Source of the DNA: a virus
IMG/VR virus record: IMGVR_UViG_3300045988_118775
Span: 1 to 37,180 of that record
Direction: 5' to 3' (one strand)
Length of the DNA: 37,180 nucleotides
Every line of letters begins with the position of its first letter. Positions within the stretch are counted from its first letter, which is position 1. Below, in pieces: positions 1,945 through 10,508 of the stretch. The notes below the pieces were generated by a model. It was not told the DNA's origin, searched no databases, and was given only the letters and a program-made list of their open reading frames with translations. A program made the translations under genes and the position numbers.

Positions 1945-2932
1945 CTTCAAAATTATTATTCACAACAAAGAAGCCGACAAGTACTTTGCCCCCGCCGTGC
2001 TTGACGGAGCGGAGTTGTCGCTCGAATTAACCGGAACGCCCGGGAAACTTGTTTTTTCGGCTCACAAAGACGAAATATTGGATTTTAAAGAAGGCGACAC
2101 GGTGCAGTTGGTAGTTGACAACGCACCGTGTTTTTTTGGATATGTGTTTAAGAAAAAGCGTAACCGTGAACAGCACATCGAGGTCACGGCGTACGACCAA
2201 CTCCGATATTTGAAAAACAAGGACAGTATCACGTACAAGGGCAAAAAAGCAAGCGAATTGATTACGATGCTTGCGGAGGATTTTCAACTGAAAGTCGGCG
2301 ACATATCCGATACGGGCTTTGTGATTGACAAGCGGACAGAGGATAACGTGACGCTTGCCGACATGATCCAAACGGCGCTAGACATAACGATGATGCATAC
2401 AAAAAAGCTATTCGTACTTTTCGACGACTTCGGAAAGCTGACGCTAAAAGAGCCGACGGCGCTATGGGTGCCGATCCTGATCAATAACCGAACGGCGCAG
2501 AATTTCGCCTATGAAAGCGGCATTGATAACGATACCTACAACTTGGTTAAGTTGGTCACGGAAGATAAGGAAAGCGGCGAACATAAAGCCTTTTACGCGC
2601 CGATGACGCCTGATGAGTTCGCAAAATCTGACGCAAAAAAGCAATGGGGCGTACTGCAGATGTACGAAAAGCTGGATCGGAATGCGCAGAGCCCGCAAGA
2701 GCTCGCGAAACAGTTACTCACGCAACATAACGTCGTCCGGCGGAAATTATCCATCGACGGCGCGGCGGGTGACATCCGCGTTCGCGCCGGATCTCTTATA
2801 GCCGTTTCGCTTGAATTGGGCGACGTGGAGATCGCGCAAAAAATGTTAGTAACAAAGGTAACGCACAGCTTTTATCATCGTGACCATCAAATGAATTTAA
2901 CGTTGAGAGGGGGCGTTATTAATGCTGAATGA
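1937..2932 (+). CDS. tail protein, XkdQ / late control gene D-like (baseplate hub)
   Basis: 331-aa ORF with start overlapping the previous stop. Sequence similarity recalled for XkdQ/YqbQ family. Conserved position in XkdP-Q-R-S-T-U order. Confidence 0.65.
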   Translation: MDSFKIIIHNKEADKYFAPAVLDGAELSLELTGTPGKLVFSAHKDEILDFKEGDTVQLVVDNAPCFFGYVFKKKRNREQHIEVTAYDQLRYLKNKDSITYKGKKASELITMLAEDFQLKVGDISDTGFVIDKRTEDNVTLADMIQTALDITMMHTKKLFVLFDDFGKLTLKEPTALWVPILINNRTAQNFAYESGIDNDTYNLVKLVTEDKESGEHKAFYAPMTPDEFAKSDAKKQWGVLQMYEKLDRNAQSPQELAKQLLTQHNVVRRKLSIDGAAGDIRVRAGSLIAVSLELGDVEIAQKMLVTKVTHSFYHRDHQMNLTLRGGVINAE

Positions 2933-3332
2933 ATCCCCCGCGAATTTGATTCGGGCAATGGTTGCACAGACGACGGCGGCGGGTAAGCCGTCGGATCTTG
3001 TTTTTGGCGTGGTTACGTCTGGCGATCCGCTCGAGATTAAGATTGACGATAAACGAACGTTAGACGCTGATTTTATTATGTTGTCCGATATGGTCAGAGA
3101 TTATGAGGTGGACATTTCCGTATCACATATGACGGAAACGAAAGGCGGCGGCAGCGGTGACGCGTCATATGAAAGCCACGCGCACGCTTACCGCGGCAGA
3201 AAGAAAATCACCGTGCATAACGGATTGAAAAACGGCGAAAAGGTCATCATGTTACGGCAAGCCGGCGGACAGCTTTTTTATGTTCTTTGCCGCGTGGCGG
3301 AGCATGCGGAACTGACGGGAGAGTGGTCATAA
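2922..3332 (+). CDS. small baseplate protein, XkdR-like (DUF2577-type)
   Basis: 136-aa ORF in operon order between the D-like gene and the XkdS-like gene. Start ATG overlaps the previous gene. Confidence 0.55.
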   Translation: MLNESPANLIRAMVAQTTAAGKPSDLVFGVVTSGDPLEIKIDDKRTLDADFIMLSDMVRDYEVDISVSHMTETKGGGSGDASYESHAHAYRGRKKITVHNGLKNGEKVIMLRQAGGQLFYVLCRVAEHAELTGEWS

Positions 3333-3754
3333 TGGGGCTTTTACCCGATGAATTTAACAACATATCAGTCGCGCGCGGCATTGACGCCACTCCGCCGCAT
3401 GCGACGTACAGAATGCAGATCGAGGCGGAACGGGTCGACGGCGCATTGACTGACGAAGTCGAGGCGGTAAAGCAAGCGGTTTACAAGATCCTGAACACGG
3501 AGCGCTACAAGCACATTATTTACTCGCCGGATTACGGTCACGAATTAACGGGCTTATTCGGCTTGCCCTTACCGTATGTATTGCCGGAGATCCCCCGACG
3601 CATTCGGGAGGCGTTAATGGTCGATGACCGGATCACCGATGTTGACCGTTTCGACCTAAAACATGATAAGTCCGGCAATGTAACGGCGAAATTCGTCGTA
3701 CATACCATTTACGGCGCATTTGACGCAGACAAGGAGGTGATCGTCGGTGTATGA
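3332..3754 (+). CDS. baseplate protein, XkdS-like (DUF2634-type)
   Basis: Track ORF 3287..3754. The likely real start is the ATG at 3332, overlapping the TAA of the upstream gene (TAATGG); it reads MGLLPDEFNN... Confidence 0.55.
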   Translation: MGLLPDEFNNISVARGIDATPPHATYRMQIEAERVDGALTDEVEAVKQAVYKILNTERYKHIIYSPDYGHELTGLFGLPLPYVLPEIPRRIREALMVDDRITDVDRFDLKHDKSGNVTAKFVVHTIYGAFDADKEVIVGV

Positions 3755-6506: not shown

Positions 6507-6725
6507 ATGGGCGATATCTTAAACGAAAGGCTGACGGTTGATGTTGACATCACTCGCCCGCTGGTTATGGGGCTTGGCGAGCGCGGCGCGAAAGGTGAAC
6601 GGGGGCCGCAAGGACCAGCAGGACCACAAGGACCGGCAGGACCGGCAGGTCCACAAGGACCTATCGGGAAAACTCCTGAATTTTATTTAGAAAAAAGCGG
6701 CGATTTATACGTTGATGAATATTGA
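6507..6725 (+). CDS. small collagen-like (Gly-X-Y repeat) protein
   Basis: 72 aa. [31 protein letters not shown] is an uninterrupted G-X-Y run. Own RBS (GAAGGGGG). C-terminal ...SGDLYVDEY. Confidence 0.7.
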
Positions 6726-6738
6726 GGGGGCGTAAAAA

Positions 6739-7386
6739 ATGGCTAGAAAGCATTTAGGCAATATCAAAGGACCGAAAGGCGACAAGGGCGATCAAGGGCC
6801 GCAGGGGCTGCAAGGTATTCAAGGCATACCCGGACCGAAAGGTGAGACCGGACCGAAAGGCGACAGAGGCCCACAAGGAGATCAAGGTCCGCAAGGGCTG
6901 CAAGGTCCGCAAGGTGAACGAGGCTTACAGGGGCCGGCGGGCAAAGACGGCCAACAGGGCATTCAAGGCGTTAAGGGTGATCCGGGTAAGCCGTTCCGCT
7001 TTTCAAAAGTATATTCAAGCGTTAGCGAAATGAACGCGGCTTTTACGAGTGACGGGTTAGAAGAGGGCGCTGTCGTTTTAATTTCAACAAAAAACGTCGA
7101 TGATCCGGATAACTCCAAAATGTATGCGAAAGGCAAAACGGCTTATACGTTTCTAACTGACCTAAGCGGCGCGAAAGGTATTCAAGGGCCACGCGGCGAG
7201 CAAGGCAAACAAGGCATTCAAGGCCCGGCGGGTAATGATGGGGCGCAGGGTCCGGCTGGCGAGCGTGGCCCGCAAGGTCCGGCAGGTCCGAAAGGCGAGC
7301 AGGGCGTGAAAGGCGATAAAGGCGACGCTCCGCAAGTAACGTTTACTTTGGATAGCGACGGCAACCTTTATTATGAAGTCGTTTAG
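6739..7386 (+). CDS. collagen-like tail fibre component (two G-X-Y blocks flanking a globular insert)
   Basis: 215 aa. G-X-Y repeats at residues about 10-85 and 150-200. RBS GAGGGGG. C-terminus ...[11 protein letters not shown] resembles the C-terminus of the previous ORF. Confidence 0.7.
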
Positions 7387-7397
7387 GAGGAGATTTA

Positions 7398-8147
7398 ATG
7401 CGTATACTTTTAGGTCGAGTAAAGGGAGATAAAGGCGAACGGGGGGCGCAAGGACCGAGAGGCCCGCAAGGTGAACGTGGTCCGCAAGGTCCGCCGGGCG
7501 AACCTGGGCAAACGGACATATATACAAGGGCGGAAAGCGATGCGAGATATCAACTTAAGGGCGAAAGCGTTGACTTTCAAGAATTGGCGCGGCGCATACC
7601 GACTTGGCAATGGAAAGTGACCATGCCGAGAACGGCTCATCAAACAGTCACGGCAACGGTCGGAAGTCAAACATACACAAGCGATTTTTACGCACCACAA
7701 GGCAGTAATGTTACGTTTAGCGCACGGGGAGCAACTGGTTATATTGAGGGCGCGGTTTCGCCAACAAGCGCAACGCTTACAGGGGACTTGGCGGTAACCG
7801 TCACGGCGGCAACGGAGAGTAAAAACGTTGAGGCTGGAACGCAAACGTTTGATAGCGGGCAAAACGACTTTCTTATCCCGCTAAACGCACAGACGTTAAA
7901 ATTAACGTGGAACGGAAAAGATACATACGCAAGGGTGACTCCTGGGTGGCATCTTTACATTACGATAGAAAAGTATGCCAACGAAAAACATATGAGTATA
8001 TTTTATATAGAGAGTATGCAAGGTGACCTGGGTGCTCAAGTTTTAAGTAGCGAAAGGCTTTACACGTCTGTAGTCATATCTTGGTCAACTGAAATCAATG
8101 CACATGCTATCGACATAGACTATACGACATTGCCGAATAATTTTTAA
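7398..8147 (+). CDS. collagen-like tail fibre / receptor-binding protein (N-terminal G-X-Y repeat, globular C-terminal domain)
   Basis: 249 aa. [37 protein letters not shown] repeat block followed by a Thr/Ser-rich domain. The last ~150 nt are markedly AT-rich compared with the upstream sequence. Confidence 0.65.
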   Translation: MRILLGRVKGDKGERGAQGPRGPQGERGPQGPPGEPGQTDIYTRAESDARYQLKGESVDFQELARRIPTWQWKVTMPRTAHQTVTATVGSQTYTSDFYAPQGSNVTFSARGATGYIEGAVSPTSATLTGDLAVTVTAATESKNVEAGTQTFDSGQNDFLIPLNAQTLKLTWNGKDTYARVTPGWHLYITIEKYANEKHMSIFYIESMQGDLGAQVLSSERLYTSVVISWSTEINAHAIDIDYTTLPNNF

Positions 8148-8190: not shown

Positions 8191-8742
8191 ATGGGGCGAA
8201 TTATGGTTAAAGAGATGAATGAAATAATCCAAGGCGTAGCGGAGGCAATGACGCGCTTAGCTGACGCGTGGTGGGTGAAGTCCTTTTTTTCCGCCTTAGG
8301 TAGCGGCGCTATTTGGTTGATTCACTTAAAACACGTTCAAGTGCTGGGCGTGTTTATTTTATTAGTACTGATCGATCTCACTACTAAATGGAGCGCGATC
8401 ACATATCAAATGCTCATTGAAAAAGGGGCGAAGCCGGAGAACATATCCGGATTTGATAAGTGGATAGCTATTCCGGTCGCGTTCGCCGAGGGGCGTGTGT
8501 CATCACGCTTTTGTCGGAACGGCTTTTTTTATAAGCTGTTGACCTACACGATAGCCACGGCGGCTGGTTTCTGCTGGGACTTTATGACGGGCGCAGGATT
8601 CGCCGTTAATCTCGTGTGGATGTATTTAGGCGCGTCTGAGTTTTTATCTATTCTTGAAAACATGAGAGACGGCGGCAACGTTGCTATGGGTCGTTTTCTG
8701 GAACTTGTGAAAGATAAAGTCGAGAAGAAAATAAAAATGTGA
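8191..8742 (+). CDS. holin (toxin-secretion / phage-lysis holin family, TcdE/phi105-like)
   Basis: Several predicted TM segments. C-terminal GASEFLSILENMRDGG matches the SEFxSILEN motif recalled for the TIGR01593 holin family. Lies immediately upstream of the amidase. The start could be 8191, 8203 or 8215. Confidence 0.7.
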   Translation: MGRIMVKEMNEIIQGVAEAMTRLADAWWVKSFFSALGSGAIWLIHLKHVQVLGVFILLVLIDLTTKWSAITYQMLIEKGAKPENISGFDKWIAIPVAFAEGRVSSRFCRNGFFYKLLTYTIATAAGFCWDFMTGAGFAVNLVWMYLGASEFLSILENMRDGGNVAMGRFLELVKDKVEKKIKM

Positions 8743-9278: not shown

Positions 9279-9445
9279 ATAAAAGCCTGTAAAACACGCC
9301 TATTTTGGTGACGTTTTTAAGCGAATGAGCAACAAAAACATTAATCAGGAAAAATCATGTATTTTTCGTTGGCGAAATTGTATTTTTGATTTAGGGCATC
9401 GCTTTTTCAAAGTGTGTTAAAATGTGAGCAGGTGAAAGCGACAAG

Positions 9446-9503
9446 TCTACGCGAGGAGTCGCGAAGACCTTGCTTATCTACGCGAGCGGCAAGGTCTTTT
9501 TTG
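9446..9503 (+). terminator. pair of overlapping, mutually exclusive hairpins; the second is an intrinsic terminator (aagaccttgc...gcaaggtctt + T7)
   Basis: Hairpin 1 is gtctacgcga-ggag-tcgcgaagac (9446..9469). Hairpin 2 is aagaccttgc-14 nt-gcaaggtctt followed by TTTTTTG (9464..9503). They share 9464..9469. Confidence 0.55.
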
Positions 9504-9512
9504 TGCGTAATA

Positions 9513-9521
9513 TGCTATAAT
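9513..9521 (+). promoter_or_regulatory. extended -10 promoter element TGcTATAAT
   Basis: TGCTATAAT directly downstream of the terminator T-run. No good -35, which is typical of extended -10 promoters. Would initiate near 9528. Confidence 0.4.
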
Positions 9522-9527
9522 GTAATT

Positions 9528-9600
9528 GAACAGCGGTAAACCTACGGGAGAGCCGCGGGGACTTGCCTACATGGATGAGTACGCAAGTCCTTTTAATTTG
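9528..9600 (+). ncRNA. candidate short structured transcript / leader ending in terminator hairpin ggacttgc-16 nt-gcaagtcc + TTTTAATTT
   Basis: Perfect 8-bp stem at 9559..9566 / 9583..9590 followed by a T-rich tract. No ORF. Confidence 0.3.
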
Positions 9601-9607
9601 CAAATGT

Positions 9608-9690
9608 TTAACTTCGTCAAAATTGGTGTTTTCACGAAGCTAAAGTATTGAACTTCGTAAAAAGTAGCATTTTCACGAAGTTAGGCTAGG
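9608..9690 (+). repeat. two tandem ~32-bp imperfect palindromes (aacttcgtcaaaattggtgttttcacgaagct / aacttcgtaaaaagtagcattttcacgaagtt)
   Basis: Each unit has arms cttcgtNaaa / tttcacgaag (10/11 complementary). The two units are direct repeats of each other. Located in the leader of the 9761 gene. Confidence 0.6.
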
Positions 9691-9710
9691 TATCTTTTTT
9701 GCTTTTATCT

Positions 9711-9741
9711 ATATATAGTATGTGAATAAATTACACATACT
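9711..9741 (+). promoter_or_regulatory. perfect 11-bp inverted repeat with 9-bp spacer (tatagtatgtg-aataaatta-cacatactata) just upstream of the RBS
   Basis: Seen directly in the sequence. Ends 4 nt before the AAAGGGGTGAG Shine-Dalgarno. Confidence 0.6.
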
Positions 9742-9760
9742 ATAAAAGGGGTGAGAACGA

Positions 9761-10189
9761 TTGCAAAGAAAAAGGTTATTTTTATTCTTATTGCCGCTAT
9801 TATTGGCGGCATTTTTATTTGGTGGCTTTTCAGTGAAAGCGGCTCCGGTGACGTTAACGGAGACGGAATGGCAGACACTAACGTCAGAATTGAACGCGCT
9901 CGAACAGAGAACGAACGAGCGGCAGAAGCTAATAAACGAATTGAAGAAAGCGTCAACCGGCTTGAACACGAGCAACAACGAATTGAAAGCGGAAATAAAT
10001 CAGTTGAAGATGTTGCAGATCGAGCAGCGGCGATCCTTAACGCGGACAGAGCAAGCCTTGAAAGAATCAGAGCAGTCGTTGATGCGGTGGAAAAAAGAAG
10101 AGTTGAAAAAGCGAACGAGCCTTGAACGAAAAAAACGCGCGTGGCAGATTATAGCAGTAGCCGCGGTAATTGCGGCGGCGGTAAAATAG
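9761..10189 (+). CDS. moron: secreted coiled-coil protein with Sec signal peptide and C-terminal transmembrane anchor
   Basis: TTG start 6 nt after a strong SD (AAAGGGGTGA). N-terminus MQRKRLFLFLLPLLLAAFLFGGFSVKA|AP is a signal peptide. Heptad-rich middle (LTSELNALEQRTNERQKLINELKK...). C-terminus AWQIIAVAAVIAAAVK is hydrophobic. An alternative frame (9751..10125, GTG start) is also open. Confidence 0.5.
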   Translation: MQRKRLFLFLLPLLLAAFLFGGFSVKAAPVTLTETEWQTLTSELNALEQRTNERQKLINELKKASTGLNTSNNELKAEINQLKMLQIEQRRSLTRTEQALKESEQSLMRWKKEELKKRTSLERKKRAWQIIAVAAVIAAAVK

Positions 10190-10245
10190 CTTTCGAGTAG
10201 CTTTCGAGTAGCTTTCGAGTAGCTTTCGAGTAGCTTTCAAGTAGC
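10190..10245 (+). repeat. 11-bp tandem repeat (gctttcgagta) x5 immediately after the stop codon
   Basis: agctttcgagt agctttcgagt agctttcgagt agctttcgagt agctttcaagt; the last copy is degenerate. Confidence 0.85.
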
Positions 10246-10270
10246 GTTTGATTTAGAGATGTGTTAAATG

Positions 10271-10310
10271 AAAAAGGAGCAGGCATTTTGCCCGCTCCGC
10301 TTTTTTTTTA
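10271..10310. terminator. bidirectional intrinsic terminator (A5-ggagcaggc...gcccgctcc-T10)
   Basis: GC stem flanked by an A-run upstream and a T-run downstream. Sits between convergent genes 9761..10189 (+) and 10308..10508 (-). Confidence 0.7.
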
Positions 10311-10508
10311 TTGTTCCGGTTCTTTGCCGAAATGCCTCACCATGGCGTCTCTTGTAATTAGCCAGATACGGCTTGATTTTCTGATTTCACCTTTCATAAA
10401 TCTGTCCGGCGTTTGAAAGATCAGTTGCCGGATTTGCCCCGGCGCTAATTTCCAGCGATCCTCCGCTTCTTTAGCGGTCAATACCTCATCAATCAACATG
10501 GCGATCAA
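10308..10508 (-). CDS. small HTH DNA-binding protein (excisionase/MerR-type HTH_17-like); candidate Xis
   Basis: 66 aa. LTAKEAEDRWKLAPGQIRQL...GEIRKSSRIWLITRDAMVRHFG resembles excisionase-type HTH proteins (LTxxEAA...G.WR.....L). Start ATGG overlaps the stop of the upstream gene. About 0.9 kb from int on the same strand. Confidence 0.4.
   Translation of the reverse strand: MIAMLIDEVLTAKEAEDRWKLAPGQIRQLIFQTPDRFMKGEIRKSSRIWLITRDAMVRHFGKEPEQ

Follow-up and report, generated by a model that had tools for sequence, protein, structure and literature searches.

A gene pair read in two frames 3' of the endolysin gene in a Negativicoccus phage: a candidate spanin-like lysis module

The locus and its two overlapping reading frames

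We analysed a stretch of virus DNA of 37,180 nucleotides (nt), positions 1 to 37,180 of the IMG/VR record IMGVR_UViG_3300045988_118775 and hereafter called the window, and in it two overlapping open reading frames (ORFs), A and B, that lie 3' of the endolysin gene. The window is from a temperate phage of Firmicute style, in which tail-fibre genes, a holin gene, the endolysin gene, a non-coding spacer of 480 nt and the A and B ORFs follow one another; on the opposite strand lie an HTH_59 excisionase gene (xis), an ORF of 155 amino acids (aa) and a tyrosine integrase gene (int). A preliminary description of the region had taken the 142-aa product of frame B for that of a self-contained moron and had mentioned frame A as a second reading of the same DNA. 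The features are collected in Table 1.

The start region was largely as first described. The TTG of B lies 6 nt 3' of a strong Shine-Dalgarno sequence, AAAGGGGTGA, and the second frame, opened by a GTG, is present and appears from the comparisons below to be a gene in its own right. The start codons of A (9751) and B (9761) are 10 nt apart behind this one ribosome-binding site. The two frames have 365 nt in common, which make up 97% of A and 85% of B, and B extends 64 nt beyond the stop codon of A. There are positions in the overlap at which a stop codon placed in one frame would leave the protein of the other unchanged. B was in the +1 frame relative to A, the embedded arrangement of a second gene within a first, in all 32 sequences compared, i.e., the window and 31 related loci (referred to by L numbers).

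The predicted A protein begins with a transmembrane helix (approximately residues 9-27), followed by a Gly/Ser/Asp-rich linker and a coiled coil of about 80 residues. An AlphaFold2 model placed helices at residues 2-28 and 41-121, and the long helix has a break near ESGNKS. A has a hydrophobic periodicity of 3.5 residues and a net charge of -5 outside the membrane, and it is free of cysteine. We infer for A a type-II topology in the inner membrane, with the acidic coiled coil reaching into the periplasm.

The B protein had the signal peptide, coiled coil and C-terminal anchor already ascribed to it. Its signal peptide, called like the lipoboxes below by simple rules, consists of an n-region (MQRKR), a hydrophobic core and a probable cleavage site between VKA and the following A. 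Mature B (about 114 aa) is fully helical. The AlphaFold2 model (mean predicted local distance difference test score, pLDDT, 87) consists of one helix, residues 34-141 with pLDDT >94, that is continuous into the hydrophobic C-terminus; the rod part, about 94 residues, would be about 14-16 nm long. B shows a heptad periodicity of 3.5 residues, has a net charge of +6 with a basic patch (KKEELKKRTSLERKKRA), and is likewise cysteine-free. The C-terminal membrane anchor (WQIIAVAAVIAAAVK) is short and is the most conserved segment of the protein. A conserved tip, TVTLTxxEW, is found at the mature N-terminus, where distant members have TYxITxEEL. A profile of B compared with 1.84 billion representative proteins retrieved 43 proteins of 60-171 aa, most of which share the signal peptide, the coiled coil, an 'RQRxxW' motif and the short C-terminal anchor. 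Comparison of the B model with viral structures by Foldseek gave no match at an expect value (E) <=0.001, which is no surprise for a protein made of one long helix. We also considered B as an obligate lipoprotein and rejected this, because the Cys of the lipobox position is not conserved: relatives have Cys, Phe or Tyr there, and the change is synonymous in A. L006, L021 and L025 are homologues with the Cys.

Table 1. Positions of features in the window, followed by genes found before the pair, or between endolysin and pair, in related loci
Feature	Position or locus	Strand	Details
Holin gene, first gene of the lysis cassette	8191..8742	+	PF05105 Phage_holin_4_1, E 9e-7; phrog_199 holin
Endolysin gene, N-acetylmuramoyl-L-alanine amidase, 173 aa	8757..9278	+	PF01520 Amidase_3, E 1e-36; phrog_435 endolysin, E 5e-60
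Small-RNA-like unit u1	9405..9506	+	extended -10 TGTTAAAAT (9415-9423), hairpin 1, terminator hairpin 9464-9498 and T6
Small-RNA-like unit u2	9505..9600	+	extended -10 TGCTATAAT (9513-9521), hairpin 1, terminator hairpin 9559-9590 and TTTT
Two tandem 41-nt repeats, imperfect palindromes AACTTCGT...ACGAAGTT	9602..9683	+	repeat families D1, I1 and I2; also in L013, L014, L018, L020
Perfect 11-bp palindrome TATAGTATGTG / CACATACTATA	9714..9744	+	abuts the Shine-Dalgarno sequence
Shared ribosome-binding site AAAGGGGTGA	9745..9754	+	read from the sequence; GTG of A inside
Gene A, 124 aa	9751..10125, GTG start	+	frame called by the Joint Genome Institute (JGI) on this contig (P0039)
Gene B, 142 aa	9761..10189, TTG start	+	+1 frame relative to A
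11-bp tandem repeat TAGCTTTCGAG, 5.4 copies	10187..10245	+	Tandem Repeats Finder score 111, 97% matches
Terminator hairpin, possibly two-way	10276..10310	both	10-pair stem with 7 G-C pairs; T9 run after it on the + strand
Amidase_3 before the pair	window, L001, L026		
Amidase_2 before the pair	L002-L007, L021, L023, L025, L027, L029		
GH25 before the pair	L028, L029, L032		
VgrG3-like_C before the pair	L031		
HicB antitoxin between endolysin and pair	L001 3221-3595; also L013		
SocA/Panacea antitoxin and partner gene between endolysin and pair	L004 2908-3781		
DUF3800 between endolysin and pair	L007 2979-3770; L032 1959-2654		
Abi_2 abortive-infection protein between endolysin and pair	L023 4086-4949		

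Selection on the two frames

Coding in both frames was assessed in a closer set of 24 related loci and a distant set of seven (L026-L032) for which the DNA was fetched. Preservation of the alternative frame only, an outcome that the preliminary description had set against its own gene call, was not what we found: A and B were both open in 23 of the 24 closer loci and in all seven distant ones. The third forward frame of the closer loci contained 7-21 stop codons. A long insertion or deletion was present only in L007, and its 21 nt correspond to seven codons in both frames.

The distribution of variation over codon positions differed between the overlap and the 20 codons that belong to B only. 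Diversity at B codon positions 1, 2 and 3 was 0.070, 0.054 and 0.357 in this tail, the classic pattern of a coding sequence, and was flattened to 0.113, 0.140 and 0.230 in the overlap. B position 2, which is position 3 of A, was more variable there than B position 1, the reverse of the pattern of a single gene.

The preliminary description had proposed synonymous-site conservation across homologues as a way to choose between the frames; the comparison detected selection on both. Substitutions were partitioned in the style of OLGenie by a simplified pairwise procedure with bootstrapping over codons and no phylogenetic correction. Classified as nonsynonymous (N) or synonymous (S), first in B and then in A, the rates were 0.088 (NN), 0.18 (NS), 0.29 (SN) and 0.68 (SS). 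The resulting ratios of nonsynonymous to synonymous rates (dN/dS) were 0.30 for B (dNN/dSN; 95% bootstrap interval 0.21-0.41) and 0.49 for A (dNN/dNS; 0.34-0.71), and the controls, with a mock frame in the matching relation, gave 1.56 in the holin gene and 2.17 in the amidase gene. Since a +1 mock frame in the holin gene gave 0.53, showing that the method has a frame-specific bias, we relied upon the matching-frame control only. These rates showed purifying selection on both frames.

The two-frame pattern extended to the distant loci, among which, and to the window, B is only 20-46% identical. In all seven, the -1 frame of B was open over 85-90% of its length, and the encoded protein had a transmembrane helix at the N-terminus and a coiled coil; open stretches in the +1 frame of B never exceeded 20 codons. 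A profile of A, built from the Negativicoccus and Veillonellaceae group only, scored all seven distant A frames (E 2e-9 to 9e-3), and residue-shuffled copies and the B frames gave E above 0.2. A profile of B likewise picked only its own frame in the distant loci. Relatives down to 30-40% identity were also found with the A profile, and both frames are kept in L023.

The start codons are conserved as a pair. Six loci (L006, L007, L023, L026, L027 and L030) have paired starts of the form ATGNATG, and the pairs seen in distant loci were ATGGATG, ATGAATG, ATGTATG and TTGAATG. In L025 the ATG of A overlaps the stop codon of the Amidase_2 gene as ATGA and the TTG of B follows 10 nt later, so that the layout RTG-AGR-RCG-ATTG is kept as far as this locus, where the RTG is the ATG overlapping the endolysin stop. 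Because this ATG...TTG layout matches the GTG...ATTG of the window, it supports the GTG at 9751 as the start of A. An ATT at 9760 was considered as the start instead and set aside, the GTG that aligns with the ATG of L025 being likelier.

A single coding frame, with the other left open as a by-product of the T-poor, purine-rich codons of a coiled coil, would account for part of these observations. Within-gene synonymous shuffles left the alternative frame open fairly often in single sequences (P up to 0.29-0.68), the reverse strand too has rather open frames, and the start codon of A stands in a poor context in the window. However, under synonymous recoding with the codon usage of the genome the other frame stayed open with P = 2e-4 to 1e-2 per sequence, and the within-gene shuffle, which retains each gene's T-poor codon usage and hence is conservative, gave joint P values over the seven distant loci of 3.5e-12 (A given B) and 2.8e-11 (B given A). 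A by-product also does not explain dN/dS below 1 in both frames with controls of at least 1, the coding pattern of the B-only tail, ATG starts for both frames in many loci, or an N-terminal transmembrane helix kept in seven of seven distant A frames. Similarity of A that is still recognisable where B has diverged so far, and that is lost in shuffled or wrong frames, argues that the frame is not a mere by-product. We consider that explanation highly improbable and regard A and B, by these measures of coding, as almost certainly two real genes. Judged from the sequences compared, dual coding is ancient and is conserved across a broad family.

On one contig (P0029) an insertion or deletion joins the N-terminus of A, with its transmembrane helix, to the C-terminal part of B. 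A +1 programmed frameshift that would fuse A to B was considered, of which P0029 would be an example, and was rejected, that fusion being confined to a single contig. Two independent products are the simpler explanation because separate paired starts are present in all loci.

Genomic position and host envelope

Wherever the upstream sequence sufficed, with one exception taken up below, the pair was located 3' of a gene for a peptidoglycan hydrolase, and these hydrolases belong to four unrelated families (Table 1). The endolysin of the window is a single domain without a wall-binding domain. In L021, L025-L029 and L031 the distance between hydrolase gene and pair ranged from an overlap of 13 nt to a gap of 27 nt, which is the signature of a lysis-cassette gene. 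The order of holin, endolysin and A/B pair, in phages whose named hosts are Negativicutes, places A where an i-spanin gene would be expected in a lysis cassette. Since the loci were retrieved by similarity to the pair, its presence in every one is not an independent test of presence and absence.

The preliminary description had proposed a moron, i.e., that the pair would be expressed from the prophage and would act in lysogenic conversion, superinfection exclusion or changed adsorption and not in lysis. The pair adjoins xis and int, and a place beside these genes is the classic position of morons in Firmicute prophages. Intrinsic terminators lie between endolysin and pair, at 9464-9504 and 9559-9594 in the window and as a hairpin after the endolysin gene in L002, L003 and L015, and a conserved AT-rich palindromic motif is found directly 5' of the pair. 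Against this stand the divergent members, in which the pair is coupled translationally to the endolysin gene or lies no more than 27 nt from it, and the fact that the pair tracks four unrelated endolysin families. Moreover, recognisable morons (HicB, SocA, DUF3800 and Abi_2; Table 1) are inserted between endolysin and pair. The endolysin/pair junction is an insertion hot spot for cargo in the related prophages, and the position of these insertions marks the pair as backbone. A comparison with the defence and exclusion families of PADLOC gave no specific match; those to JetC and LmuB were weak and of coiled-coil type. A moron is probably the wrong interpretation, and a role in the prophage instead of in lysis is unlikely, although expression of the pair from the prophage is possible in this lineage.

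The spacer itself was read differently from the account given at first, in which an extended -10 promoter, TGCTATAAT, opened a structured leader of about 230 nt. This element is not a simple promoter with such a leader, because a terminator hairpin of its own, with a T-run (9559-9590), follows about 40 nt downstream. It belongs instead to one of two tandem units of about 95 nt each, of which 13 copies were found in nine sources (the window, L001, L004, L008, L011, L013, L017, L018 and L020). The sequence TGnTAnAAT was invariant in the 13 copies, and compensatory changes were present at five of 15 predicted pairs; a search of Rfam with the supposed leader and the tandem units, at gathering and at permissive thresholds, returned nothing credible. 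The units look like phage genes for small RNAs of about 75 nt, and the second one, to which TGCTATAAT belongs, most probably yields such an RNA and not a leader for the pair. The spacer looks like another insertion between endolysin and pair, with the small-RNA-like unit, and not the pair, as the inserted element.

Terminators had been placed on both sides of the cassette. The hairpin on the far side (10276-10298) was confirmed, with a run of A on one side and a run of T on the other, and, as its sequence suggests, the terminator could close the late operon from one side and the xis/int operon from the other. No terminator directly follows the endolysin stop; the first was found at 9464-9504. 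The 41-nt repeats between the units and the pair could be protein-binding sites or RNA hairpins. The palindrome next to the Shine-Dalgarno sequence is part of a motif, TCTATATATAGTATGTG-N9-CACATACTATA (9708-9744), which occurs once in the window (0.02 expected by chance), is kept in most N. succinicivorans loci and has variant forms in others. Possible roles for it are those of an operator, of a promoter or of a translation-controlling hairpin. Its first part (9708-9724) was considered as a late promoter reused elsewhere and rejected because of its single occurrence in the window. The options for transcription of the pair are read-through or antitermination of the late operon and a promoter within this motif.

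Several features near the pair concern other matters. The start of the TAGCTTTCGAG repeat coincides with the stop codon of B; the repeat was not seen in the related loci examined and hence looks like a strain-specific expansion. The tail-fibre genes 5' of the holin gene contain collagen-like Gly-X-Y repeats (6600-7500 and 7398-8147) in arrays with periods of 9 and 18 nt, and the C-terminal parts of the tail fibres have been exchanged among related loci in a mosaic pattern. In L026 a reverse transcriptase gene (RVT_1; 2575-3720) lies just 5' of the holin gene and may belong to a diversity-generating retroelement or be a defence-type reverse transcriptase.

The host bears directly on the need for a protein that acts on an outer membrane. 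Homologues of B were annotated from Negativicoccus succinicivorans and from metagenome-assembled genomes of Veillonellaceae, and one distant member lies in a prophage flanked by genes that match Succiniclasticum proteins at 90% identity or more. Negativicoccus and Succiniclasticum are both placed in the class Negativicutes. The host of the window is N. succinicivorans, a Negativicute with an outer membrane, and every host that could be named is a diderm Negativicute. These bacteria have a lipopolysaccharide-containing outer membrane that is tethered by OmpM, and both LolA and LolB are absent from them (PMC5007114). The earlier assumption of a Gram-positive host that needs no spanins is therefore wrong, since a phage of a Negativicute must breach the outer membrane. 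Without LolA and LolB, the canonical route by which a lipoprotein o-spanin reaches the outer membrane should not work in these hosts. In a comparative study of prophages of Negativicutes, no gene is named for passage through the outer membrane (bioRxiv 10.1101/606087), and our literature search found nothing on spanins in Negativicutes.

A spanin-like reading of the pair

We propose that A and B form a dual-coding, spanin-like module, the third component of the lysis cassette after holin and endolysin, and give this reading a probability of roughly 0.55. A function in lysis of some kind is likely; that the pair acts on the outer membrane in the manner of spanins has about an even chance. The topology of both proteins, their interaction and their action on the outer membrane are deduced from the features described above. 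In the proposed mechanism, one ribosome-binding site would serve the GTG at 9751 and the TTG at 9761. The signal peptide would direct the export of B and the C-terminal helix would fix it in the inner membrane, so that B would stand as a basic alpha-helical rod whose conserved N-terminal tip (TVTLTxxEW) would face the outer membrane. The holin and amidase would first destroy the peptidoglycan, after which A and B would disrupt the outer membrane, bridging or fusing the two membranes as spanins do. Such a design would need no lipoprotein sorted by Lol. Since Negativicutes lack LolA and LolB, a spanin-like device that does without one might be expected in them.

The closest parallel is Rz/Rz1 of phage lambda (PMC6139136), which is likewise a gene pair after holin and endolysin genes, with the second gene in the +1 frame, in a phage of a host with an outer membrane. 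In lambda Rz, as in A, a transmembrane helix at the N-terminus leads to a periplasmic coiled coil that is broken in its middle, and the type II transmembrane helix and coiled-coil domain of A are those of an Rz-like i-spanin. The six best PHROG matches of A, all of them weak, were Rz-like spanin families (E 7e-5 to 4e-3). B is unlike Rz1 in that it begins 4-10 nt after the start of A and not in mid-gene and is as long as A or longer, and between Rz/Rz1 and A/B there is no significant sequence homology, only weak matches driven by architecture. Typical o-spanins are short proline-rich lipoproteins; B, in contrast, is entirely alpha-helical with a C-terminal anchor, has no lipobox in the window, and lacks both the invariant Cys and the mature domain of about 40-60 aa without transmembrane helix that characterise o-spanins. 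The periplasmic cysteines by which two-component spanins form covalent homodimers are absent, A and B both being free of cysteine.

Other systems resemble the pair in part. The unimolecular spanin gp11 of phage T1 (PMC6139136) shares with B an export signal, a C-terminal transmembrane helix, the lack of periplasmic cysteine and an endolysin neighbour. Unlike B, gp11 needs an outer-membrane lipoprotein signal and is mostly beta-strand in its periplasmic domain; B consists of one long helix, as a rule has no canonical lipobox and is always co-encoded with the overlapping A. B does have the C-terminal transmembrane helix of a unimolecular spanin, but the window's copy has no lipoprotein signal and the family shows one only inconsistently. 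This signal defines both o-spanins and unimolecular (u-)spanins. We describe the pair as working like a spanin and do not file it in any spanin family. Lambda S105/S107 and P2 lysB/lysC are also cases of compressed coding, where close starts behind one ribosome-binding site fix the proportion of two lysis proteins, whereas A and B occupy different frames for about 120 codons and have no sequence in common. By analogy only, the helix of B that runs into a C-terminal transmembrane segment, together with an oppositely charged coiled-coil partner, resembles tail-anchored fusogens of the SNARE type; there is no homology to them, and a residence of A or B in the target (outer) membrane would be hypothetical.

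A role in lysis confined to the inner membrane or to timing would also suit several observations. The pair might be a holin accessory or antiholin, resemble XhlA or SPP1 gp24.1, or assist the release or positioning of the endolysin. A and B both seem to be anchored in the inner membrane and have no outer-membrane targeting signal, and weak PHROG matches linked one family member to hemolysin (XhlA-type) and another to holin. Among the lysis-cassette products of phages of monoderm Firmicutes are coiled-coil proteins that end in a transmembrane helix. B, however, has a signal peptide, which puts its rod outside the cytoplasm, unlike tail-anchored proteins of the XhlA type. All hosts that could be named are diderm, and a search of 50,697 deposited phage genomes, thousands from monoderm Firmicutes included, at the DNA and protein levels with the window sequences and two distant B proteins found no family member, a result which fits a family of poorly sampled hosts and equally a limit of BLAST on coiled coils. 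For a breach of the outer membrane the phage offers no alternative candidate: there was no ORF with a canonical lipobox and no third o-spanin-like ORF anywhere in the window. We judge a role of this kind quite improbable.

Database comparisons gave the pair no other name. An exact-sequence look-up of the window's A and B returned no record, and Pfam, NCBIfam and PADLOC gave generic coiled-coil matches only, all below cut-offs. The names 'EnvC' and 'small-conductance mechanosensitive channel' attached to matches in databases are spurious, since they reflect generic coiled-coil similarity. The distant B family offered no stretch of sufficient conservation for alignment-based scans of viral contigs.

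Several points weigh against the spanin-like reading. No outer-membrane anchor is evident in A or B, the window's B has no cysteine, and a canonical lipobox was present in one of 35 B family members, with a relaxed pattern in 13 of 35. A transmembrane helix and a coiled coil may be all that the weak matches of A to spanin families reflect. The GTG of A sits within the Shine-Dalgarno sequence and has no properly spaced one of its own. Among the loci, L030 has no adjacent endolysin gene, five of the seven distant loci have no identified host, and L022 (1298-1594) is the exception among the closer loci, with a TGG-to-TGA nonsense change in B and A intact; sequencing error, decay of the prophage or tolerated variation could account for this premature stop and for the P0029 fusion. 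The terminators or inserts in the window and in most N. succinicivorans prophages, together with the palindromic motif upstream, make transcription independent of lysis possible. What is said here of the expression and function of the pair comes from sequence and models.

A stronger form of the spanin-like reading, which we regard as tentative and rather doubtful, is that A and B are a new lipoprotein-free, envelope-breaching machine of diderm Firmicutes that lack Lol, in which inner-membrane rods of opposite charge and opposite polarity would assemble across the periplasm and either break open the outer membrane or fuse it.

The pair is a concrete candidate for the means by which phages of Veillonella, Negativicoccus, Megasphaera and Selenomonas cross the outer membrane, and A and B are the best candidates yet for outer-membrane breaching by viruses of double-membraned Firmicutes. 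It also presents a problem of annotation, as gene callers report one frame only (A in 107 protein clusters, B in 38). About 120 codons appear to be read in two frames, both under purifying selection, and persist with paired starts down to 20-30% protein identity. If true, this would place A and B among the longest and most deeply conserved same-strand dual-coding pairs known in bacteria or their viruses. Such overlaps are rare, and the pair could serve as a model for the evolution of overlapping genes.

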